Below are positions 10,708 to 62,655 of a DNA stretch of 63,703 bases, piece by piece. The notes beneath the pieces are model-generated. The model ran no database searches, was not told the origin of the DNA, and saw only the letters and a program-made list of their open reading frames with translations. A program made the translations under genes and the position numbers. The stretch's first letter is position 1, and every line of letters starts with the position of its first letter. The stretch is from an uncultured Thermotogae bacterium (GTDB lineage: Bacteria; Bipolaricaulota; Bipolaricaulia; CAYUCE01). The DNA is taken from assembly GCA_964443275.1 (NCBI GenBank), contig CAYUCE010000003.1, positions 1-63,703 on the forward strand. The letters run 5' to 3'.

Positions 10708-11303
10708 GTTAATACGTCTGTCGAGAAAGGGATTAACAAGAAGGTTTGATGTCCTAAAGGCAGAAAGGGCAGACGGTGGATACCTAGGTAATCAGAGGCG
10801 ATGAAGGACGTGGCTGGCTGCGATAAGCCTCGGGGAGCCGCCAAGCAGGCTTTGATCCGAGGATTTCCGAATGGGGCAACCTGCCTGGATGAAGTCCAGG
10901 TATCTGCTGCCCGAATTACAGTAAGGCGGCAGAGGCAAACCCGGGGAAGTGAAGCATCTTAGTACCCGGAGGAAAAGAAACCAAACGAGATTCCCCTAGT
11001 AGCGGCGAGCGAAGAGGGAGGAGCCCAAACTTGGCTAGCGTCAAGGCTGCATCCGTTGTTAACCAAGGGTTGTAAGTTTGATCCATCTTATCCATGCAGG
11101 GGTAAGGAAGAGAACTTGTATCTAGTCGAACGGCCAGCAAAGTCACTGGAAAGGGCGACCGGAGAAGGTGATAGTCCTGTAGGCAAAAGGTACAAGGAAT
11201 CTTTGTGATCTTACTTGAGTAGCGTCGGGCACGTGAAATCCGGCGTGAAGCTGGGAGGCCCACCTTCCAAGGCTAAATACTCCTGATTGACCGATAGTGG
11301 ACT

Positions 11304-11334
<31 letters not shown>

Positions 11335-11387
11335 GGAAGGGGAGTGAAATAGAACTTAAAACCGTCTGCTTACAGACAGTGGGAGGA

Positions 11388-11471
11388 GAGCAGTGGTTCA
11401 ATGTTCTGAAGTTCAACGTTCGAGGTTTTTTAACTTTGAACTGAGAACTTTGAACTACGAACTAGGCTTTC
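11388..11471 (+). other. helix-25 expansion / IVS-like hairpin inside 23S
   Basis: Lies between conserved CAGTGGGAGG and GACCGCATGCCTTTTG. The E. coli equivalent is about 14-20 nt; here it is 84 nt forming an imperfect long hairpin rich in GTTCAA/TTGAAC. Confidence 0.75.
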
Positions 11472-11879
11472 TGACCGCATGCCTTTTGCAGTATGAGCCG
11501 GTGAGTTACTCTATGTGGCGAGGTTAAGCGTAAAGCGTAGCCGCAGGGAAACCGAATGGTCTGAACAGGGCCAAAGTCATGTGGAGTAGACCCGAAGCCA
11601 GGCGATCTATCCGTGGCCAGGGTGAAGTCTGGGTAACACCAGGTGGAGGCCCGAACCCACCGAAGATGCAACTTCGGGGGAAGAGTTGCGGATAGCGGTG
11701 AAAAGCCAATCGAGCCTGGTTATAGCTGGTTCTCCCCGAAATAGCTTTAGGGCTAGCCTCCTAGTAATCAGTGGGGGGTAGAGCACTGGATGGATGAGGG
11801 CTAACCGATTCCAACCAAACTCCGAATACCTGCTGATGATCTAGGGGAGTCAGAACGCGGGGGATAAACTCCGCGCTCG

Positions 11880-11910
<31 letters not shown>

Positions 11911-12071
11911 CCCCCAAGTCCGGGCTAAGTGGTGAAGGTAGTTCCGTTGCTTAAACAGCTGGGAGGTTGGCTTAGAAGCAGCCATCCTTTAAAGAGTGCG
12001 TAATAGCTCACCAGTCTAGCGGTGGTGCGCCGAAGATTTAACGGGGCTTAAGCCCGGCGCCGAAGCTGCGG

Positions 12072-12145
12072 AAGGTTAGTAATCAGTCTTCAGCTTATAG
12101 CCTTTATGGTTTTTGGCTGATAACTGAGAGCTGATAACTAGCCTT
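12072..12145 (+). other. helix-45 expansion / IVS-like hairpin inside 23S
   Basis: Lies between conserved CGAAGCTGCGG and GGTAGGGGAGC. It is 74 nt versus about 22 nt in E. coli; the arms pair with several G-U wobbles. Confidence 0.75.
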
Positions 12146-12876
12146 GGTAGGGGAGCATTCCGCGGTAGGTCGAAGCCAGATTGCGAGGTCTGGTGGACGA
12201 TGCGGAAGAGAGACTGCCGGCATGAGTAGCGAAATCTGAGTGAGAATCTTGGACACCGAATGCCTAAGGTTTCCTGGGCAACGCTTGTCGTCCCAGGGTT
12301 AGGCGGTCCTAAGCCCAACCCAAAAGGGGTAAGTGATGGACAGCCGGTTAATATTCCGGCCCCTCTCTCAAACGTTGGGACTTGTTCCCTGAAGCGAAGG
12401 GGTGACGCTTTTGGCAAGGCTTTGCATGCTGACGGACGCGCATGCCCAAGCGCCGAGTAAGCGGGTGTAGGCAAATCCGCACCTGCGATGAGCAAGGCGT
12501 GATGGGGAGGGCCTACGGGCCCGAAGAAAGCTAAGTCAGAAGCCAAGAAAAACCTCTAGCGAGTTTGTGAGAGACCGTACCGAAAACCGACACAGGTAGG
12601 CGAGGAGAGAATCCTTAGGTGTACGAGCTAACTCTGGCCAAGGAACTCGGCAAAATGGCCCCGTAAGTTCGCGAGAAGGGGTGCCACCTTCGGGTGGCCG
12701 CAGTGAACAGGCCTGGGCGACTGTTTATCAAAAACACAGGACCCTGCCAACTCGAAAGAGGATGTATAGGGTCTGAAGCCTGCCCACTGCCGGAAGGTCA
12801 AGGGGATGGGTGAGAGCTCTGAACTGAAGCCCCGGTGAAGGGCGGCGGTAACTATAACCGTCCTAAGGTAGCGAAG

Positions 12877-12912
<36 letters not shown>

Positions 12913-12995
12913 CTAACGACTTGGGCGCTGTCTTGGCCAGGGGCTCGGTGAAATTGAAGTGCAGGTGAAAATGCCTGCAACCCGCGGCAGGACGG

Positions 12996-13034
<39 letters not shown>

Positions 13035-13359
13035 CTTGACCTATATCGTGCAGGATAGGTGGGAGGCTGTGAACCGAAGGCGCTAGCTTTCGGGGAGCCA
13101 CCCTTGAAATACCACCCTTTGTAGGTTGGGGTTCTAACCGGGCGTCCTTAATGGGGCGCTGGGACAGTGTCAAGTGGGCAGTTTGACTGGGGCGGTCGAC
13201 TCCTAAATTGTAACGGAGTCGTGCAAAGGTCCCCTCAGGCTGGTCGGTGATCAGCCTACAGAGTGTAAGGGCAAAAGGGGGCTTAACTGCGAGACATACA
13301 AGTCGAGCAGATGCGAAAGCAGGCCCTAGTGACCCGCTGGTTCTTCGTGGTAGGGCCAG

Positions 13360-13397
<38 letters not shown>

Positions 13398-13508
13398 AGT
13401 CCCTCCCGAGAGTTCACATCGACGGAGGGGTTCGGCACCTCGATGTCGGCTCATCTCATCCTGGGGCTGAAGCAGGTCCCAAGGGTCTGGCTGTTCGCCA
13501 GTTAAAGA

Positions 13509-13550
<42 letters not shown>

Positions 13551-13948
13551 CCTATCCGCCGTGGGCGTAGGAGACTTGAGGGGGTCTCTCCCTAGTACGA
13601 GAGGACCGGGAGGGCTGGATCGATGGTGAACCAGTTGTCCCGCCAGGGGCACCGCTGGGTAGCTAAGTCCAGACTAGATAAGGGCTGAAGGCATCTAAGC
13701 CCGAAGCTGACCCCAAGATAAGGTCTCCCTATCAGGTCCCTCCGAGACCAGGAGGTAGATAGGCCGCAGGTGTAAGCATCGTAAGGTGTTAAGCCGAGCG
13801 GTACTAATCGACCGATTGCCTTAATTTGGGCATCAAACCTTCTTGTTGCTTCCTTTCAGAGATTCAGGACCTGGGATTTAGATTCTAGGATTTAATAGGT
13901 TACTTTTAAGTTTTTCTAACCCCTAAATCCCGTATCCTAGCTTATTAA

Positions 13949-51476: not shown

Positions 51477-51605
51477 GGAATGGCACAGAGGCCATTCCCT
51501 ACATCTGGCCTATCATAAAACGTAGGGTTGGGTCTCTGTGCCCAACCGAATGCATGCTTGTATCATAAAACGTAGGGTTGGGTCTCTGTGCCCAACCGAA
51601 TGCAT
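51477..51605. repeat. cluster of three REP-like hairpin elements (one inverted, two in a 50-bp tandem)
   Basis: Identical 45-bp copies at 51511-51555 and 51561-51605, each with a GGTTGGG/CCCAACC stem. An inverted diverged copy at 51477-51502 has a GGAATGGC/GCCATTCC stem. Confidence 0.7.
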
Positions 51606-55577: not shown

Positions 55578-55605
55578 TTGACAAATCGGGAAAAATGCCT
55601 ATAAT
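55578..55605 (+). promoter_or_regulatory. sigma70-type promoter of the LIV substrate-binding-protein gene
   Basis: TTGACA (55578-55583), 16-nt spacer, TATAAT (55600-55605). Confidence 0.55.
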
Positions 55606-55611
55606 TTAAAT

Positions 55612-55901
55612 TCACGTAACTCAAGAACGAATTTGAGGCAGAATTAAAATCATGAAGAAAAATAAGAAATACAGTGAGGTGATGAGGAAGGCAGACATCA
55701 GCTTATCTATACTCTATCTGATTCTGATTAGGTTTATTTAGCCACATCGCTTACTGTTAAGTGATGTCGCTAAACTGGGAAGGCCAAAGCCTGTAAGGCT
55801 TGGCCGCTTTATATTATCAGGAGGTGATAGATGAAAGATTGTTTTTGGGCGTTCTAAAGTGAAAGTTCTTTGTGATACTATAACCAAAAGGAGGTACAAC
55901 A
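55612..55901 (+). promoter_or_regulatory. long structured 5' leader (leader A) with attenuator-like terminator; homologous to leader B
   Basis: About 290-nt leader. 13-bp hairpin at 55741-55770, terminator-like hairpin at 55782-55805 followed by GCTTTATATTAT, and ordered sequence words shared with 61059-60887 on the minus strand. Confidence 0.5.
55782..55817 (+). terminator. leader-internal intrinsic-terminator-like hairpin (attenuator)
   Basis: GGCCAAAGCC-TGTAA-GGCTTGGCC then a U-rich tract, 85 nt upstream of the start codon. Confidence 0.45.
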
Positions 55902-57185
55902 ATGAACAAGGAAGTATTTGAAAAAAATGGAGATAAATCCCTTTCCCGGCGAAGCTTTCTCAAAGGAATGGGAGCCGCGGCCGGAGCGGCAGCAATGAGC
56001 AGTTCATTTGGATTCAGTGTGATGGGGCAGGAGAAGATTAAGCTGGGATGTTTGATGGCCCTTACCGGCGGTTTAGCAAAGTATGGTCCACCAATAGCGG
56101 ATGGAGCCAGGTTTGCGGTAAAGCATATAAATGAGGCCGGCGGGGTATTAGGTAAAGAGGTAGAATTACTAGTTAGGGATACTCAGACCAAGGAAGGAGC
56201 AGGCCGAGACGCAGCCGCAAAACTGGCGGATGTTGAAAATGTACCAGCAATCATTGGGGCACTCTCCAGTGGGACCACAGTAGCAGTCTCCTCAGTTACT
56301 ATACCTAAAGAAGTGGTGTTGATTTCACCTTCTGCAACTGCACCGGCCTTAACAGATTTGGACGATAATGACTACGTTTACCGAACTTGTGTATTAGATA
56401 AGGTTCAGGGAGTCATTCAAGCCAAGCTGGCAGCTTACCTGGAATATGAGACTGTTTCAGTAATCTTCGTCGACAACCCGTATGGGAAGGGATTGGCTGA
56501 AGTTTTCAAGGCCAAGTTTGAGGAACTGGGTGGGGAGGTCACCGCTATGGTCCCCTATCCAGTTGAACTACCTACCTACGGGGGAGAAGCGGCGAAAGCA
56601 GTAGATCCCAACCCGGATGCAATAAACATCATCGGTTATCCAGCAGGAGGAAATAAACTATTGATCAAGACACTGGAGCTTGGTTACCAAGGGGAGTATC
56701 TGTTCCCCGATGGAATGAAAGGTGAAGGTGTGTCTCCCGGCCCCACCTGTGAATTGGATGCTTCACCCGAAGAACAATACATTGAGGGTTCCTTTGGTAC
56801 TGCTCCTGGTTCACCCGCCTTTGGTCCCCCGAAGCAATTTAGAAAAGACTACGAGGCAGAATACGGACCATCCGCAGTACCTTTCTGGGCCCAATGTTAC
56901 GACGCTACCGTCTCTGTTGCACTGGCTATGCAGGCAGCAGGAGAAGCATCCGGTCCAGCTATTAAGACTAACATAAGAAAAGTAGCCAACCCACCGGGTA
57001 CAGAAGTTACCTACGGTGAATTGGATAAGGCCTTAGCCCTGGCAAAAGAAGGAAAGGAAATTAACTGGCAAGGAGTTTCAGGACCGGTAACTTTCGATGA
57101 AAACGGAGACATGGCAGCCGGAATTGTAGAAATATGGGCAATAAGAGACTGCAAAGTCAAAACTGTTTGGCTGGTGGAAATGTAA
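55902..57185 (+). CDS. branched-chain amino acid (LIV-type) ABC transporter substrate-binding protein, Tat signal
   Basis: SRRSFLKGMGAAAGAAA twin-arginine signal; type I periplasmic binding fold motifs; AAGGAGG SD. Confidence 0.9.
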   Translation: MNKEVFEKNGDKSLSRRSFLKGMGAAAGAAAMSSSFGFSVMGQEKIKLGCLMALTGGLAKYGPPIADGARFAVKHINEAGGVLGKEVELLVRDTQTKEGAGRDAAAKLADVENVPAIIGALSSGTTVAVSSVTIPKEVVLISPSATAPALTDLDDNDYVYRTCVLDKVQGVIQAKLAAYLEYETVSVIFVDNPYGKGLAEVFKAKFEELGGEVTAMVPYPVELPTYGGEAAKAVDPNPDAINIIGYPAGGNKLLIKTLELGYQGEYLFPDGMKGEGVSPGPTCELDASPEEQYIEGSFGTAPGSPAFGPPKQFRKDYEAEYGPSAVPFWAQCYDATVSVALAMQAAGEASGPAIKTNIRKVANPPGTEVTYGELDKALALAKEGKEINWQGVSGPVTFDENGDMAAGIVEIWAIRDCKVKTVWLVEM

Positions 57186-57229
57186 AGATAGGATTAATCA
57201 GCACGTCGATTTAATTTAATAATAAAAGA

Positions 57230-57274
57230 ATGCCCGCTCGCTTAACTTAAAAGTGAGTGGGCATCATTTTTTTT
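57230..57274 (+). terminator. rho-independent terminator
   Basis: 14-bp stem ATGCCCGCTCGCTT / AAGTGAGTGGGCAT (two G-U pairs), 7-nt loop, then T8. Confidence 0.8.
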
Positions 57275-57328
57275 AGAGTGATTTAAAGTTACAAAAGGAG
57301 TAGAAAATAGTAAGGCTATTAGGGAGAG

Positions 57329-58357
57329 TTAGCCTTTAAGAATTTTAGAAACGTGCTTTTCTTCACCCAGCAGACCGTGAGGTCGGGTAAGGAGGATCAC
57401 TTCCAGCAAAATACCGATAGTAATTATGCGCAAGGCTGCGGCCCTGGTTTGTGACAGGGGTAAATAACCGGTGATAAATTCAGTCCCTGCCCAAATTCCC
57501 CAAACTACAAAAGCTCCCAAAATAGCACCCTTGTTATTTCCGCTACCTCCGGCGATTAACATGACCCAAACCAAGAAAGTCCCAAAGAGGGGTTCGAAGC
57601 TACTTGGACCTACATACATTGAGAAATGGGCATATAAGCTCCCTCCCATACCCATAATCATGGCTCCTAAAACCAGAGACTGGAGCTTAAAGCGGAATAC
57701 ATCTTTTCCAGACATAGCGGTTACAGTTTCATCTTCTCGGATAGCTCTTAAGACTCTACCCCAAGGAGATCTTATGATCCGTTCGATAGCTAGATAAATA
57801 AGAAAAATAATTATTAAGAGTAAGATTAGGAAAAACCAATTATAAGCACCACCAATTAGGTTTTGTAACCATCCGGGCAGTTGGGGATGGGCTTCCAGAA
57901 AACCTTGGCTGAGCCCTCGAATGGGTCGATAAAGTGGAGATGGAATGTGTTTTATCCCCCAAACCCCGTTGGTAAGCCAACTTTCTTGCTTAATGACTAA
58001 CCTGATTGCTTCCGCTATTCCAATTGTAGCAATTGCCAGATAATCCTCTTTTAAACGTAAGGTAGGTATACCGATTAAAAGCGCAACGATTCCGGCCGCA
58101 GCTGCCGCTCCTAGAAGACCTAATATAAAAGGTAGCTGGTATCCTCCTACGACCCTCCAGGCAGTCGTCTCAGGTGGGAATCCAGAAATAAAAGCTGAAG
58201 TATAAGCGCCAACCGCATAAAAACCAGCGATTCCGATATTGAATAGCCCGGTATAACCCCACTGGATGTTTAAGCCTAAGCAAAGTACTGCATAGATCCC
58301 TGCGGTTATGGAAAAGAATATAATGTAATTGAGAATTCCGATGAACGAATCCATCAA
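57329..58357 (-). CDS. livM: branched-chain amino acid ABC transporter permease (LivM type)
   Basis: Multi-TM protein, LivM-like length and conserved GYTGLFNIG motif. Confidence 0.9.
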   Translation of the reverse strand: MMDSFIGILNYIIFFSITAGIYAVLCLGLNIQWGYTGLFNIGIAGFYAVGAYTSAFISGFPPETTAWRVVGGYQLPFILGLLGAAAAAGIVALLIGIPTLRLKEDYLAIATIGIAEAIRLVIKQESWLTNGVWGIKHIPSPLYRPIRGLSQGFLEAHPQLPGWLQNLIGGAYNWFFLILLLIIIFLIYLAIERIIRSPWGRVLRAIREDETVTAMSGKDVFRFKLQSLVLGAMIMGMGGSLYAHFSMYVGPSSFEPLFGTFLVWVMLIAGGSGNNKGAILGAFVVWGIWAGTEFITGYLPLSQTRAAALRIITIGILLEVILLTRPHGLLGEEKHVSKILKG

Positions 58358-58360
58358 TAT

Positions 58361-59263
58361 CTACCTCCTTCCTAATAATCCAGTGGGCTTCAGCAGCAAC
58401 ATGAGAATCATTATAGCAAAAGAGATCGCCGGTTTATAAGCAGTGGAGATAAAGGCTGTAGAAAGTTCCCCAGAAAGCCCGATAACCATGCCTCCCAGCA
58501 TAGCTCCATATGGACTGCCAATTCCTCCCAAAATTACCGCGGCAAAAATAGGTAACAGCATTTGCCATCCTAAGGGCGGGGTGATAAATCTATTCTCAAT
58601 CCCCACTAATATACCTCCGGCAGCAGCTAGCGCTCCTCCTATTCCCCACGTCCACATTATTACTCTCTCTGTATCAATCCCGGTTATTCTTGCCAGTTCC
58701 ATATTATCCGCCGCCGCGCGCATTGCCTTTCCCATCTTGGTATGCTTTAAAAAAAGGTGCAGGAGAGCCACCAAAACTATGGCAGTTACAATTATAAAGA
58801 TTTCATCCGGCTTAATTCTTACTCCCAGCCATGGTATTTTTCTGGAGATTTGAATTCCCTTGAAAAAATATTGAGGCTGAGGTCCCCAAACAAATTGGAG
58901 AATATTTCTTAGCGAAAATGAGACCCCCACCGCAGCAATCAACAATATAATTGTGCCAGCTTTCCTTAATCTCTTAAATAACAGTCTATCAATCACGATG
59001 ACCGAAACTCCGGTGAAGAACATGGAGATGATTAAAGCCAACACCATAGGTAAGCCAAAAGAAAGGGGGCCAAATGACTGAGCGGAAACCCCCAGTCCCC
59101 TAAACAGGGTCACGCAAGCCAGAGCTAGATAAGCCCCCAAAGCCATGACATCGCCGTGGGCAAAATTGGCAAACCCCATAATTCCGTAGGTTAGGGAAAG
59201 TCCTATCCCTCCCAAGGTCAAGATACTACCCCAGATAATTCCATATACAGCCAGTTGCAACAT
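58361..59263 (-). CDS. livH: branched-chain amino acid ABC transporter permease (LivH type)
   Basis: Multi-TM protein, GM.NFAHG motif. Confidence 0.9.
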   Translation of the reverse strand: MLQLAVYGIIWGSILTLGGIGLSLTYGIMGFANFAHGDVMALGAYLALACVTLFRGLGVSAQSFGPLSFGLPMVLALIISMFFTGVSVIVIDRLLFKRLRKAGTIILLIAAVGVSFSLRNILQFVWGPQPQYFFKGIQISRKIPWLGVRIKPDEIFIIVTAIVLVALLHLFLKHTKMGKAMRAAADNMELARITGIDTERVIMWTWGIGGALAAAGGILVGIENRFITPPLGWQMLLPIFAAVILGGIGSPYGAMLGGMVIGLSGELSTAFISTAYKPAISFAIMILMLLLKPTGLLGRR

Positions 59264-59345
59264 AACTTAGTTCAAATCTCCAGTTTCAGTATTTTACTTG
59301 CTTCAACCAAATAAAAAATTAGACAGCCAAAACCTAAACCTATAT

Positions 59346-60050
59346 TTAACCGCCTAAATAAAGCCTTCCTACTTCTGGGTTATTAAGTAGCGACTCTCCT
59401 GTATCCTCAAACTGCTTTTTCCCCATAGCTAAAACGTACCCCCTTCCGGACATAGCCAGGGCTTCCTGGGCGTTCTGCTCTACCATCAGGATGGCCACTC
59501 CGGACTCATTTATCTCCTCAACTTTGCTCAGCATCATTTCTGCCAGTTTAGGAGCCAATCCGGCGGTGGGTTCATCAAATAGCAAGAGTTTCGGATCTAG
59601 CATTAAAGCCCTCCCCATGGCAACCATCTGCTGCTGACCCCCGGAGAGCTTACCGGTGCGTTGGTTTCTTCTCTCTTTAAGAACCGGGAATATATCATAG
59701 ACCTCAGTGATCTGATCGCTGTAATCATCTTCCCTGGTAAAAGCTCCCATTTCCAAATTCTCCTCCACGGTTAAGGAGGGAAAGACATTGCCTTCCTGAG
59801 GAACGTAACACATCCCTTTTCTCACTATGCGATCGGGTTGAAGGCCGGTTATTTCATCATCGTAGAAAGTTACCTTGCCCTGGAAGGGAGTCAAAAGGCC
59901 AAATATGGTCTTCATTAAAGTTGACTTTCCAGAGCCGTTGGGTCCGATTATGGAGACCACTTCATCCTCGTTTACTTCCACAGATACCCCATGGAGAATT
60001 TCCACTTCTCCGTAACCAGAATATATCCCACTAGCTTTCAGAATAATCAA
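59346..60050 (-). CDS. livF: branched-chain amino acid ABC transporter ATP-binding protein (LivF type)
   Basis: GPNGSGKST, LSGGQQQM, LLFDEP. The TTG at 60050 with a GGAGGGGG SD is the likely start (ORF track starts at 60080). Confidence 0.9.
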   Translation of the reverse strand: MIILKASGIYSGYGEVEILHGVSVEVNEDEVVSIIGPNGSGKSTLMKTIFGLLTPFQGKVTFYDDEITGLQPDRIVRKGMCYVPQEGNVFPSLTVEENLEMGAFTREDDYSDQITEVYDIFPVLKERRNQRTGKLSGGQQQMVAMGRALMLDPKLLLFDEPTAGLAPKLAEMMLSKVEEINESGVAILMVEQNAQEALAMSGRGYVLAMGKKQFEDTGESLLNNPEVGRLYLGG

Positions 60051-60810
60051 TTGCTCTACCCCCTCCCAGATAAGCATCAATTACCGTCTGGTTATTCTTA
60101 ATTTCCTCCGGGGTGCCTTCGGCCAGCTTGGCTCCGGTAGACATGACTATTACCGGGTTGCATAAGTTCATCACCAGATCCATATCGTGTTCCACTAAGA
60201 AGAAGGTAACCCCTTTTTTATCTTTTAGTTGGTTTATATCTCTCATTAATTTCTTCATTAATGTGGGGTTGATTCCAGCTCCCGGTTCGTCAAGTAAAAC
60301 CAACCTGGGATCGGACATCATGGTTCTGGCCAGTTCTAGCAGCTTCTTTTGTCCCCCGGATAAGTTCTTGGCGTATTCCTCCTTTAAATCAATTAATTCA
60401 ACAAATTCCAGTACTTCTAAAGCCTTATCTCTTATTTGTTCTTCCTGTTTTCTGACTGATCCGGGTCTGATCCACGGATTCCAAATTCTCTCCCCCATCT
60501 GATGGGGTGGAACCAGCATAAGATTCTCTAAAACGGTCATCATCTTTAATTCCCTGGTGATCTGGAAGGTCCGGGAAATCTTTTTGTGAAATATCTGGTG
60601 AGGAGGTAGGCCGTCAATTCGTTCATTATCGAATAGTATTTCCCCTCCGTCCGGGCGATAAAAGCCGGTGATCAAATTAAAAAGGGTGGTTTTCCCTGCT
60701 CCGTTAGGACCTATTAATCCAGTAATTGTATTTTTCTTAACTTCTAGGGAACAGCGATTTACTGCCCTAATTCCTCCAAAATCTTTTACCAAATCCTTTA
60801 TTGCTAACAT
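60031..60810 (-). CDS. livG: branched-chain amino acid ABC transporter ATP-binding protein (LivG type)
   Basis: GPNGAGKTT, LSGGQKKLLELAR, VLLDEP, C-terminal BCA_ABC_TP_C-like tail. Confidence 0.9.
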   Translation of the reverse strand: MLAIKDLVKDFGGIRAVNRCSLEVKKNTITGLIGPNGAGKTTLFNLITGFYRPDGGEILFDNERIDGLPPHQIFHKKISRTFQITRELKMMTVLENLMLVPPHQMGERIWNPWIRPGSVRKQEEQIRDKALEVLEFVELIDLKEEYAKNLSGGQKKLLELARTMMSDPRLVLLDEPGAGINPTLMKKLMRDINQLKDKKGVTFFLVEHDMDLVMNLCNPVIVMSTGAKLAEGTPEEIKNNQTVIDAYLGGGRAIDYSES

Positions 60811-61059
60811 GATTTAGTCTCTAATTTGATCGAAGCTAATTTAACGAAAGCTGATAAGTTTTATTATATAGATAAGAGCTTGCCTTATAAAAAAATTTGC
60901 CCCAAGCCCTCAAGGCTTCAGGCCTTTTCGATAGCGGTTTAGCTTTTAAAAAGCGAGACCACTAAGCAATTATAAAATCCACATAAAGTAACAGTTGCCT
61001 AATCCGCTACCAATCACCACCTCGTTAGTTCTATTTCCGTGCATCCTATCACCAGCTTA
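60811..61059 (-). promoter_or_regulatory. long structured 5' leader (leader B) of livGFHM; homologous to leader A
   Basis: About 250-nt leader between the promoter and the livG ATG. It contains an intrinsic terminator and the same ordered words as leader A. Confidence 0.5.
60887..60924 (-). terminator. leader-internal intrinsic terminator (attenuator)
   Basis: Minus strand: GGCCTGAAGCC-TTGAG-GGCTTGGGGC, then AAATTTTTTTAT, about 75 nt upstream of the livG start. Confidence 0.55.
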
Positions 61060-61065
61060 GAAGAA

Positions 61066-61094
61066 ATAATAGCACACTCATCTTAGATTGTCAA
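61066..61094 (-). promoter_or_regulatory. sigma70-type promoter of livGFHM
   Basis: Minus strand TTGACA (61094-61089), 17-nt spacer, TATTAT (61071-61066). Confidence 0.55.
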
Positions 61095-61212
61095 GATCAC
61101 GGCTCTTCACCGAATCTACACCGCTATATAACACTGCTTGTAAAGTAATATCCGCCCCCTGCTGTGAATGGAGAACCTCCTTTACTATAATGAATGTAAT
61201 AGTGGTGATTCG

Positions 61213-62655
61213 ATGAGAGTAAGAGTTCGATTTGCCCCCAGCCCTACAGGTAATTTACACGTTGGCGGGGCTAGAACAGCTTATTATAATTGGTTGTTTG
61301 CCAGAAAAAATGGGGGAGAATTTGTGTTGCGAATCGAGGATACGGACCGTAAGCGTTCCAAAAGAACCTATGAAGAAAATATTATTGAAGACTTAGAATG
61401 GCTGGGTATCGATTGGGACGATTTTTACCGGCAGTCGGAGCGATTTGATATATACAGAGATTATGCAGACCGCCTTTTGGATGAAGGCAGAGCCTATCAC
61501 TGCTATTGCCGAGACGAAGAACTAAAAGAAATGCGGCGAAAGGCACAAAGTGAAGGACGCCCTCCCGGCTATGATGGCAGATGTCGAAATTTAACTTCCC
61601 AAGAAAAGAAGAAATTCCAAAAGGAAGGAAGAGAACCCACCATCAGATTTAAGATCTCGGAGCCGGATAAAAGCGTGGTAATTTCGGATCTTATAAAAGG
61701 TGAGGTGGAATTTGACCGGGTAATGACCGGAGATTTTATTTTAATTAAGTCAGATGGTACCCCCACCTATAATTTAGCAGCCACCATCGATGATCATCTG
61801 ATGGGGATAACTCACGTACTGAGAGCTGAAGAACATTTATCTAACACACCCAAGCAAAAAATGCTTTATCAGGCTCTGGGTTTTACTCCCCCGAAGTTTG
61901 GTCACCTCCCGCTTCTGCTGGGGGAGGATCGCAAAAAGCTTTCCAAAAGACACGGCTCAGTAATGGTAAGGGAACTTCGAGAGAAAGGTTATCTGCCGGA
62001 GACTTTAAAAAATTACTTTGCCCTTTTAGGCTGGTCTTCCAAGGATGAACAGGAGATTTTTTCCGAAAGCGAGCTATTGATGTGCTTTTCATTAGAAAAT
62101 ATGATGAGAAGCCCGCAGGTTTTTGATTTTGATAAGTTGGACTGGTTGAATAACCACTATTTACAAAAAGCCGATCTAGAAAGAATAACCAAGTTAGCAA
62201 TCCCTTGGATAAAGAAGGCCGGTTATTTAAAAGATAACCAGCTATCAAATAAAGAGAGCCAAAAGCTTAAACGGATCGTCGATTTACTGCGCCCTTCAAT
62301 TAGCAATTTATCTGAGCTCAAAGAGCATAAGGATTTGAATATATTTTTCGAAATTCCACTCCTAACTCCGGAAGCCAAAGAAATCCTAAACGATGATATT
62401 TCAGCCCAGGTACTGGAAAGCTTTCTTCAGACTCTAGAGGGGAGGGTCGAAATATCCCCCAGCCAAGTGACTAAGTTGATTAAGAAGGTAAAAGAAGAAC
62501 TGGATGTAGGTTTTAGACAAGTTTATGAGCCGCTGCGGGCTGCTATTACCGGCAAAACCAGCGGCCCGGAGATAAATCAGGTAATATCGATACTGGGAAC
62601 GACTGAAACCCAAAAAAGGTTGCAAACTCAGTTTGACACTGCTCAAACAAACTGA
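61213..62655 (+). CDS. gltX: glutamyl-tRNA synthetase
   Basis: RFAPSPTGNLHVGG (HIGH) and KLSKRHG (KMSKS). The ATG at 61213 fits the family N-terminus (ORF track starts at 61168). Confidence 0.93.
   Translation: MRVRVRFAPSPTGNLHVGGARTAYYNWLFARKNGGEFVLRIEDTDRKRSKRTYEENIIEDLEWLGIDWDDFYRQSERFDIYRDYADRLLDEGRAYHCYCRDEELKEMRRKAQSEGRPPGYDGRCRNLTSQEKKKFQKEGREPTIRFKISEPDKSVVISDLIKGEVEFDRVMTGDFILIKSDGTPTYNLAATIDDHLMGITHVLRAEEHLSNTPKQKMLYQALGFTPPKFGHLPLLLGEDRKKLSKRHGSVMVRELREKGYLPETLKNYFALLGWSSKDEQEIFSESELLMCFSLENMMRSPQVFDFDKLDWLNNHYLQKADLERITKLAIPWIKKAGYLKDNQLSNKESQKLKRIVDLLRPSISNLSELKEHKDLNIFFEIPLLTPEAKEILNDDISAQVLESFLQTLEGRVEISPSQVTKLIKKVKEELDVGFRQVYEPLRAAITGKTSGPEINQVISILGTTETQKRLQTQFDTAQTN

Follow-up and report, generated by a model that had tools for sequence, protein, structure and literature searches.

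The window analyzed here is a whole stretch of 63,703 nucleotides (nt), positions 1 to 63,703 of contig CAYUCE010000003.1 (assembly GCA_964443275.1), from an uncultured Thermotogae bacterium placed by GTDB in the Bipolaricaulota. It contains two convergent transcription units that together encode one ATP-binding cassette (ABC) importer of the HAAT family, comprising a gene for the substrate-binding protein on the forward strand and livM-, livH-, livF-, and livG-like genes on the reverse strand. All components of the importer score under the NCBIfam curated cut-offs, and the substrate is therefore known at the family level only. Each unit is preceded by a leader, referred to as leader A (binding-protein gene) and leader B (livG), in which a promoter is followed by a short open reading frame (ORF), a strong hairpin (hairpin 1), and a terminator-like hairpin (Table 1). 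The two leaders are interpreted here, with roughly even confidence for and against, as a pair of ribosome-mediated, leader-peptide attenuators through which the cell would gauge its supply of hydrophobic amino acids.

An initial annotation, made from the DNA letters alone, had described two related, terminator-bearing leaders behind near-consensus promoters, and most of this description stands. Promoters A and B lie where it had placed them and are the two best sigma-70-like sites within 49–63.7 kb. Transcription starts are inferred at approximately 55612 for leader A, from the position of the −10 box, and at approximately 61059 for leader B, which gives leader lengths of approximately 290 nt and 249 nt, respectively, in agreement with the 250–290 nt estimated earlier. 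The terminator stems were likewise found at the positions described before, and the distance from the U tract to the start codon is 84 nt in leader A and 79 nt in leader B, within the 75–85 nt previously given. Hairpin 1 and the terminator-like hairpin are separated by 7 nt in each leader. Leader A folds with a z-score of −2.1 and leader B with one of −1.2, both modest values. Directly 3′ of terminator B lies a promoter-like site that might serve as a secondary promoter; L045 and L108, two related loci described below, do not conserve it.

The upstream part of each leader is occupied by an ORF that ends next to hairpin 1. The stop codon of ORF A1 (55739–55741) sits in the 5′ foot of hairpin 1, and that of ORF B is located 5 nt ahead of hairpin 1; an ORF in such a position arises by chance in 160 of 2000 shuffles of leader A and in 177 of 2000 shuffles of leader B, i.e., in 8–9%. 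ORF A1 starts with an ATG at 55652, with GAGG 13 nt upstream, and contains 10 Ile or Leu codons among its last 14, and ORF B is preceded by GGTGAT 3 nt before its ATG (61044). The word GAGGTG(G)TGA, which the initial annotation had listed among the sequences common to both leaders, is in frame in both ORFs, as GAGGTGATGA (55676–55685) in ORF A1 and GAGGTGGTGAT (61023–61013) in ORF B, where it codes for Glu-Val and is also Shine-Dalgarno-like. Pairing of an internal word of this type with the 3′ end of 16S rRNA is expected; the 16S rRNA gene is located outside the window.

Table 1. Features of the two importer units, and ykkC-fold aptamers at two orthologous loci. Positions are those of the window unless a locus is named; asterisk-free peptides end at a stop codon.
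Feature	Position	Strand	Description
Promoter A	55578..55605	+	TTGACA, 16-nt spacer, TATAAT; 12/12 match
Leader ORF A1	55652..55741	+	MKKNKKYSEVMRKADISLSILYLILIRFI; 29 codons, TAG stop
Hairpin 1 of leader A	55737..55774	+	UUUAGC-C-ACAUCGCUUA / UAAGUGAUGU-C-GCUAAA; −17.6 kcal/mol
Terminator A	55782..55818	+	Stem-loop 55782-55805, then U-rich GCUUUAUAUUAUC; −14.2 kcal/mol
Shine-Dalgarno word	55819-55828	+	AGGAGGTGAT; perfect; found exactly twice in the window
Mini-ORF A2	55831-55857	+	MKDCFWAF; 8 codons; follows AGGAGGTGAT
Ribosome-binding site of binding-protein gene	55887-55895	+	AAAGGAGGT
Substrate-binding-protein gene	55902-57185	+	HAAT / Peripla_BP_6 / ANF_receptor family; twin-arginine translocation (TAT)-type signal
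livM-, livH-, livF-, livG-like genes	57329-60810	−	Unit convergent with the binding-protein gene
Promoter-like site	60863..60891	−	TTTATA-17-TATAAT; 10/12; directly 3′ of terminator B
Terminator B	60889..60924	−	Stem-loop 60924-60899, then AAAUUUUUUU (60898-60889); −15.4 kcal/mol
Hairpin 1 of leader B	60931..60964	−	UAGUGGU...ACCGCUA, inner stem GCUUU/AAAGC; −11.8 kcal/mol
Leader ORF B	61044-60970	−	MHGNRTNEVVIGSGLGNCYFMWIL; 24 codons; with Shine-Dalgarno word, feature 60970..61053
Promoter B	61066..61094	−	TTGACA, 17-nt spacer, TG-n-TATTAT; 11/12 match, TG extension
ykkC-fold aptamer, locus L001	789-891	+	
ykkC-fold aptamer, locus L001	6246-6355	−	
ykkC-fold aptamer, locus L049	1026-1129	+	
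ykkC-fold aptamer, locus L049	6495-6605	−	

The same layout is found in relatives. Twenty-three leaders of orthologous loci (14 of the binding-protein type and 9 of the livG type, including the two of the window) were compiled from genome and metagenome scans with the binding protein (52–67% identity) and from further contig look-ups, and were sorted by eye into about 12 sequence groups. All 23 leaders comprise a TTGAC-type promoter, an ORF, a strong hairpin, 2–7 nt, a terminator, and the gene; the 21 leaders beyond those of the window include L045, L108, and several Bipolaricaulota lineages. An ATG-started ORF of 15–35 codons is present in every leader (23/23), and its stop codon lies within hairpin 1 or at most 5 nt before it in every case (23/23). 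Because only 8–9% of shuffles place an ORF in this manner, its presence in every lineage is far beyond chance. Furthermore, all 14 ORFs of the binding-protein type (window; loci L002–L107) end in TAG, which terminates only 21–38% of the long ORFs of these sequences. The −10 box of several relatives is followed by the ATG after no more than 7–12 nt, and their ORFs are therefore probably translated from leaderless or near-leaderless transcripts. In the Bipolaricaulota livG leaders the terminator ends approximately 20 nt before the start codon; a further promoter could not fit into this space, so that livG expression must come from read-through. Compensatory changes were observed in 5 of 19 base pairs of hairpin 1 and the terminator among nine aligned leaders, and both are, judged from this covariation, real structures. 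Relatives thus carry the element ahead of the binding-protein gene as well as ahead of livG, a conservation on which the initial annotation had let its proposal depend.

The relatives nearest to leader B are L045, in which GltX and LivG are 71% and 86% identical to those of the window and the gltX/livG synteny is kept, and its sister contig L108 (LivG 87% identical). In the intergenic leader of L045, the same promoter is followed by an ORF with the same GGTGAT-nnn-ATG start and then by hairpin 1 and a terminator. Both loci conserve promoter B, the Shine-Dalgarno word, hairpin 1 (with one U-A pair changed to U-G), and the position of the terminator, the stem sequence of which is completely different. 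In L108 the upstream ATG has been lost and an in-frame TAG gained, and the open frame from an internal ATG is kept (MAVIESKQLKCSFLWFIIT, followed by a stop codon), which restores the Cys-x-Phe-x-Trp register of window B. The leader ORFs of L045 and L108 also differ by one T in a T run, the peptides ending in FFVVYNYLMVVSV and FLWFIIT, respectively. ORFs homologous to ORF B are present in L045, L108, L104, L107, and L055.

The last 12 residues of the compiled leader peptides consist of I, L, V, M, F, W, or Y to 58% and of F, W, or Y to 27%, compared with 13–15% F, W, or Y in the other two frames of the same bases. The N-terminal parts are variable in length and sequence, basic (21% K or R), and 5% aromatic, and the peptides contain no single-amino-acid run. 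Recurrent tails are NCYFMW(IL), NCYFMIHW, LFYFMW, GYCFTWM, GYYFTWL, FYWTI, GYWFLM, FVYFLW, and HWFMG. Furthermore, window B has the pattern E-V-x7-N-C-Y-F-M in common with L104, the N-C-Y codons of the two differing by three synonymous changes.

The direct similarity between leaders A and B is weak. The shared words listed in the initial annotation are all present, except that the start of the TTAAGTG word is at 55757, one base before the stated 55758. When exact words of at least 6 bases common to both leaders are chained in colinear order, the best chain covers 65 bases, which was reached by none of 1000 dinucleotide shuffles (mean 39, maximum 63) and by 7 of 1000 real 255-nt window segments. 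Formal alignment, which the initial annotation had proposed, gave a global score equalled by only 5 of 500 shuffles; the best local alignment covers the terminator hairpin alone (20/25 identical), with a score reached by 75 of 1000 shuffles. The nhmmer search that it had also proposed, with one leader as query against the window and all loci, did not recover the other leader and gave no cross-hit. Since colinear word sharing exceeds chance, the earlier observation of two related leaders is taken as confirmed; on sequence grounds, leaders A and B are either distantly related or under the same constraints. Neither the window nor 0.96 Mb of retrieved loci yielded an additional copy when searched with a profile of nine Bipolaricaulota leaders.

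No known RNA family accounts for the two leaders. Rfam models, including those for the T-box, the ykkC folds, and amino-acid leaders, gave no match in either leader when the whole window was searched at the gathering threshold; when each leader was searched at E ≤ 10, leader A gave only chance-level matches to small nucleolar RNA (snoRNA) and small RNA (sRNA) models and leader B gave none. The T-box covariance model did not match either leader even at E ≤ 10 and the T-box sequence is absent, in line with the initial annotation, which had recognized neither a T-box consensus nor a known riboswitch core. A T-box-like UGGU/ACCG pairing in hairpin 1 of leader B was considered and rejected, there being no Stem I and no model match. 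The models of the ykkC folds, i.e., guanidine-I, guanosine tetraphosphate (ppGpp), and phosphoribosyl pyrophosphate (PRPP), and of other known riboswitches did not match the window leaders. With regard to a new riboswitch domain, consensus folding of nine related leaders, a small sample, gave only hairpin 1 and the terminator. The CodY box AATTTTCWGAAAATT (at most 3 mismatches) has four matches in the window, none near either promoter, against a shuffle mean of 7.4.

In another lineage, both control points are occupied by a different sensor. In L001 and L049, a ykkC-fold aptamer and a terminator lie ahead of both the binding-protein gene and livG, and the same arrangement is seen, judged by sequence, in L046–L048. 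The aptamers of L001 and L049 match the Rfam Guanidine-I model with 50–56 bits (curated threshold 63) and E of about 1e-7, and the search is therefore able to detect ykkC folds. Toward the 3′ end of the model, these aptamers deviate at several consensus positions, presumably binding-site positions of the ykkC fold; they are therefore probably ykkC RNAs of subtype 2. The ligand of subtype-2a ykkC RNAs is ppGpp, and these RNAs are linked to branched-chain amino-acid genes (PMC6003355). It is well documented that attenuation systems swap sensors between lineages at the same genes (PMC2965389). A sensor swap at both positions supports parallel control of the two transporter halves, and this earlier idea is strengthened by the recurrence of the two-leader layout both in relatives and with another sensor.

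In the proposed mechanism, both transcription units would respond to one signal, the speed at which ribosomes traverse a short ORF in which hydrophobic and aromatic codons abound. A ribosome ending or stalling in the last codons would melt or mask the 5′ arm of hairpin 1, and its position would set which partners the 5′ arm of the terminator can reach; the candidate antiterminator would form between the terminator 5′ arm and the stop-codon region, i.e., the 5′ arm of hairpin 1. If aminoacyl-tRNAs of Ile, Leu, Val, Phe, Tyr, or Trp were scarce, stalling would favor read-through and thereby more importer, and the terminator would form when they are plentiful. The internal Shine-Dalgarno-like words (GAGGUGAU, GAGGUGGUGAU) would probably hold or pace the ribosome through pairing with 16S rRNA, or may act as a pairing partner. 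The direction in which starvation turns expression on is suggested by the ykkC-fold aptamers at orthologous loci together with the dependence of Acetothermia on uptake; a closed Acetothermia genome encodes little amino-acid biosynthesis and is reliant on uptake (PMC6092417), a physiology that fits the attenuator reading. The best upstream partner of the terminator 5′ arm adjoins the stop codon in 15 of the 23 leaders, and the alternative pairing has a predicted energy of −8.0 kcal/mol in window A (55730–55743 with 55780–55793) and −10.2 kcal/mol in window B (60968–60955 with the arm from 60924). In the nine Bipolaricaulota binding-protein leaders, both stem cores consist of the same invariant words, GCUCC and GGAGC, an identity that cross-pairing of the stems would require. 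The initial annotation had inferred a duplicated attenuator or riboswitch-like element; the attenuator is retained here in a leader-peptide form, and the riboswitch-like part is not supported, as neither an Rfam model nor a conserved folded domain was found.

Several observations weigh against leader-peptide attenuation. No convincing conserved antiterminator was found by truncated and ribosome-masked folds, consensus folds with blocked segments, or duplex scans over all upstream windows. Hairpin 1 (−12 to −31 kcal/mol) is stabler than the alternative pairing (−5 to −14 kcal/mol), and its 3′ arm lies between the two candidate partners; under simple ribosome-masking constraints the terminator still forms, and the alternative appears only if this 3′ arm is blocked. 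The enrichment of partners at the stop codon is weak evidence, because the arms of hairpin 1 are the sole G+C-rich upstream segments. The U tract of terminator A is interrupted and poor and was missed by a simple terminator scan. The richness of ORF A1 in Ile and Leu is partly expected of A+T-rich sequence in any frame. Substitutions in the Bipolaricaulota ORFs are even over codon positions 1, 2, and 3 (55, 53, and 58), and some codons (GTG, CTT) are invariant, for example within AAGG(A/G)GGTG(A/G)T and (T/G)T(C/T)CTT, and indicate constraint at the nucleotide level. Finally, such leaders are absent from the nearest binding-protein homologues (62–66% identical: L014, L041, L098, and L100). The upstream regions of P0002/L041–44, P0007/L098, P0006/L100, L014, and P0005/L099 are short or different and lack the element, and P0113/L102 and P0245/L109 are located within other operons. 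Separately, the idea that the ORFs are ordinary conserved small proteins was dropped because of the even substitution counts. Several minimum-energy folds pair the 3′ end of the ORF with the downstream ribosome-binding site; as a candidate control this pairing was rejected, being no better than in shuffles in most leaders, including both window leaders.

The behavior of hairpin 1 in the folding tests, where the alternative pairing needs the 3′ arm to be held and ribosome position alone is insufficient, would be accommodated by factor-dependent antitermination, in which a protein, tRNA, or small RNA on hairpin 1 or its 3′ arm frees the 5′ arm and the ORFs are secondary, serving, for example, to stabilize the 5′ end by ribosome loading. 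The stem cores, which are invariant in the nine Bipolaricaulota leaders while the flanking pairs covary, and the codon-position counts, which are not protein-like, agree with such a factor. It is nevertheless unlikely, since neither the window nor the relatives have a candidate regulator gene linked to the locus, and the T-box and other Rfam models do not match; moreover, it leaves unexplained why the open frame always ends exactly at the foot of the hairpin and why the L108 frame was kept after its first ATG was lost. A metabolite riboswitch that senses a branched-chain amino acid or some related signal, the novel reading preferred by the initial annotation, is highly improbable: a conserved multi-helix domain is lacking, the consensus fold of the nine relatives being confined to the two hairpins, the upstream part is an open frame of variable sequence, and the folding z-scores given above are modest. 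What speaks for it is that both leaders are long, bear terminators, and match no known family, and that ykkC-fold aptamers, below the Rfam curated threshold, occupy the same positions in another lineage.

The fixed position of the stop codon in every leader and the uniform TAG of the binding-protein type would also be expected if the peptide itself were read, as in a TnaC-like arrest in which a free hydrophobic or aromatic amino acid stalls the ribosome at or near the stop codon, the stalled ribosome keeps hairpin 1 open, termination or downstream translation is altered, and the importer is induced by its substrate. The motif common to window B and L104 with synonymous codon changes, and the tails YFMW, CFTWM, HWFMG, and GYWFLM elsewhere, agree with this possibility; by contrast, the order and identity of aromatic residues differ among lineages, the last residues before the stop codon are not conserved, substitutions lack a third-position bias, and the Ile/Leu-rich tail of window A is without the motif. 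Such an arrest peptide is quite unlikely, and so are, to the same degree, nascent-chain sensors, which would combine a C-terminal aromatic motif with a super-strong Shine-Dalgarno word inside the ORF and a UAG stop that is obligatory at the hairpin foot. If nascent-chain sensing were true, the ribosome itself would sense free amino acids of the hydrophobic or aromatic kind, or else the status of release factors or tRNAs, and a TnaC-like principle would be joined to an intrinsic terminator to control both importer halves in a candidate phylum without genetics. Because each unit has a complete promoter, ORF, and terminator, the units might instead be stand-alone small genes that make their own short mRNA or sRNA, with the transporter expressed through constitutive partial read-through or secondary promoters; the promoter-like site after terminator B (60891–60863) and the approximately 80 nt with a second mini-ORF between terminator A and the binding-protein gene would suit this arrangement. 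It is rather unlikely, as that site is not kept in the two close relatives, the ribosome-binding site of the gene directly follows the terminator in the Bipolaricaulota relatives, variable peptides of 15–17 residues are unlikely to be functional proteins, and the units are always linked to these two genes and are replaced by ykkC-fold aptamers in another lineage.

Should leader-peptide attenuation be true, a deep-branching, uncultivated Bipolaricaulota-like lineage would tune its uptake of hydrophobic amino acids by ribosome speed, two matched attenuators would make the binding protein and the membrane components rise together, and the ykkC-fold aptamers at the same control points would represent a clean natural case of sensor exchange. 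The internal Shine-Dalgarno word, the stop codon at the hairpin foot, and the UAG of all 14 binding-protein leaders do not fit the textbook four-segment model, and these three details could reveal a different coupling of ribosome position to termination. The general principle of leader-peptide attenuation is established, and the element itself is conserved and unannotated. To our knowledge, this form of control is rarely documented outside Proteobacteria, Actinobacteria, and a few Firmicutes, and we know of no case for an amino-acid importer. For annotation, these intergenic regions hold predicted translated mini-ORFs rather than unexplained non-coding RNA.

Between terminator A and the binding-protein gene, the word AGGAGGTGAT and mini-ORF A2 may represent a STAB-SD-like stabilizer or a relay ORF. 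The same Shine-Dalgarno word followed by a short ORF is found in L055 and L103, and a slightly variant word with no ATG start after it is found in L104, L107, L012, L008–L010, and the L001 group; in many lineages, including the riboswitch-controlled one, a word of the form (A/G)GG(A/G)GGTGA lies between the attenuator and the own ribosome-binding site of the binding-protein gene. Another mini-ORF, MSLNWEGQSL (ATG 55764), which begins in the 3′ arm of hairpin 1 and extends through terminator A, was rejected because it has no Shine-Dalgarno sequence and no counterpart in other leaders. The upstream regions L014 1–203, L098 430–525, and L100 510–620, in which the leader ORF and terminator are absent, have a long promoter region in common, with TTGACAT, then TTGA.A.GTTGTA, and then ATTATAATAA, which may be an operator for a protein regulator. 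Leader B adjoins gltX, the product of which is 55–59% identical to Bipolaricaulota (Acetothermia) proteins, so that the window belongs to a divergent member of this phylum or to a relative of it. The start of gltX is probably the ATG at 61213 rather than that at 61168, with GGTGAT 5 nt 5′ of the former and homologues spanning only 95% of the longer ORF. Elsewhere in the window, a 22-nt hairpin, GGTTGGGCACAGAGACCCAACC, followed by CTACGTTTTA, is present twice at a spacing of 50 nt (51526–51547 and 51576–51597, reverse strand) downstream of an IF-2B-family gene, and the 23S rRNA (10753–13828) is approximately 150 nt longer than the Rfam model, with sizeable insertions near 11040–11100 and 11390–11460. 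A fluoride riboswitch (Rfam RF01734, 48 bits) is located at L055 2067–2128, on the same contig as one of the related loci.

Among known systems, the classical attenuators (trp, leu, ilvGMEDA, ilvBN, pheA, and his of Proteobacteria, also found in Actinobacteria and Firmicutes) are the closest kind. They have a short translated leader ORF enriched in relevant codons, comparable with the predicted leader ORFs here, in which such an enrichment is putative; they likewise have an intrinsic terminator before the first structural gene, and the formation of their hairpins depends on ribosome position, as proposed here. Their sensors are replaced by T-boxes or riboswitches in other lineages (PMC2965389), as the window type is by ykkC-fold aptamers. 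Unlike the classical attenuators, the present element would control an importer rather than a biosynthetic operon and occurs twice, once per unit; its codon set is mixed, hydrophobic and aromatic, without a run of one amino acid, and its stop codon sits invariably at the foot of a hairpin that is self-contained and has no overlap with the terminator. The usual 1:2/2:3/3:4 overlap was looked for in these leaders and not found. Further differences are the conserved internal Shine-Dalgarno-like word, the strong preference for a TAG stop in the binding-protein type, and the apparent start of translation at or near the 5′ end of the transcript in several relatives.

Other systems share single traits with the window leaders. 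The tnaC-tnaAB operon similarly has a short leader ORF with an aromatic motif, a stop codon whose position matters, and an amino-acid transporter among its targets; TnaC blocks Rho, whereas the window leaders contain an intrinsic terminator, and peptides of the window type are only loosely conserved. In the translational attenuation of ermC and cat, a pausing leader ribosome remodels downstream hairpins, as it would here, and in several relatives the ORF 3′ end (UUCCUU) could base-pair with the gene's Shine-Dalgarno sequence, a complementarity mostly no better than in shuffles; in contrast to ermC and cat, a terminator with a U tract is present and no antibiotic is involved. T-box leaders, which are common for branched-chain amino-acid transporters in Firmicutes, are also long, contain terminators, and lie upstream of amino-acid genes, but the window leaders have no match to the model, no T-box sequence, and no identified Stem I or specifier loop. 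STAB-SD is a Shine-Dalgarno word in the 5′ untranslated region (UTR) that stabilizes mRNA, according to Agaisse and Lereclus (1996) as listed in PMC3997798. The word that follows terminator A resembles it in lying well upstream of the ribosome-binding site of the gene and in having similar words in many orthologous leaders, and differs in preceding a start codon and an eight-codon ORF, its stabilizing role being putative. Finally, the ppGpp riboswitch (ykkC subtype 2a) controls branched-chain amino-acid genes through a terminator (PMC6003355), and ykkC-fold aptamers occupy the corresponding two positions in the L001/L049 lineage, with scores under the curated Rfam value; the window leaders bear no match to the ykkC fold.

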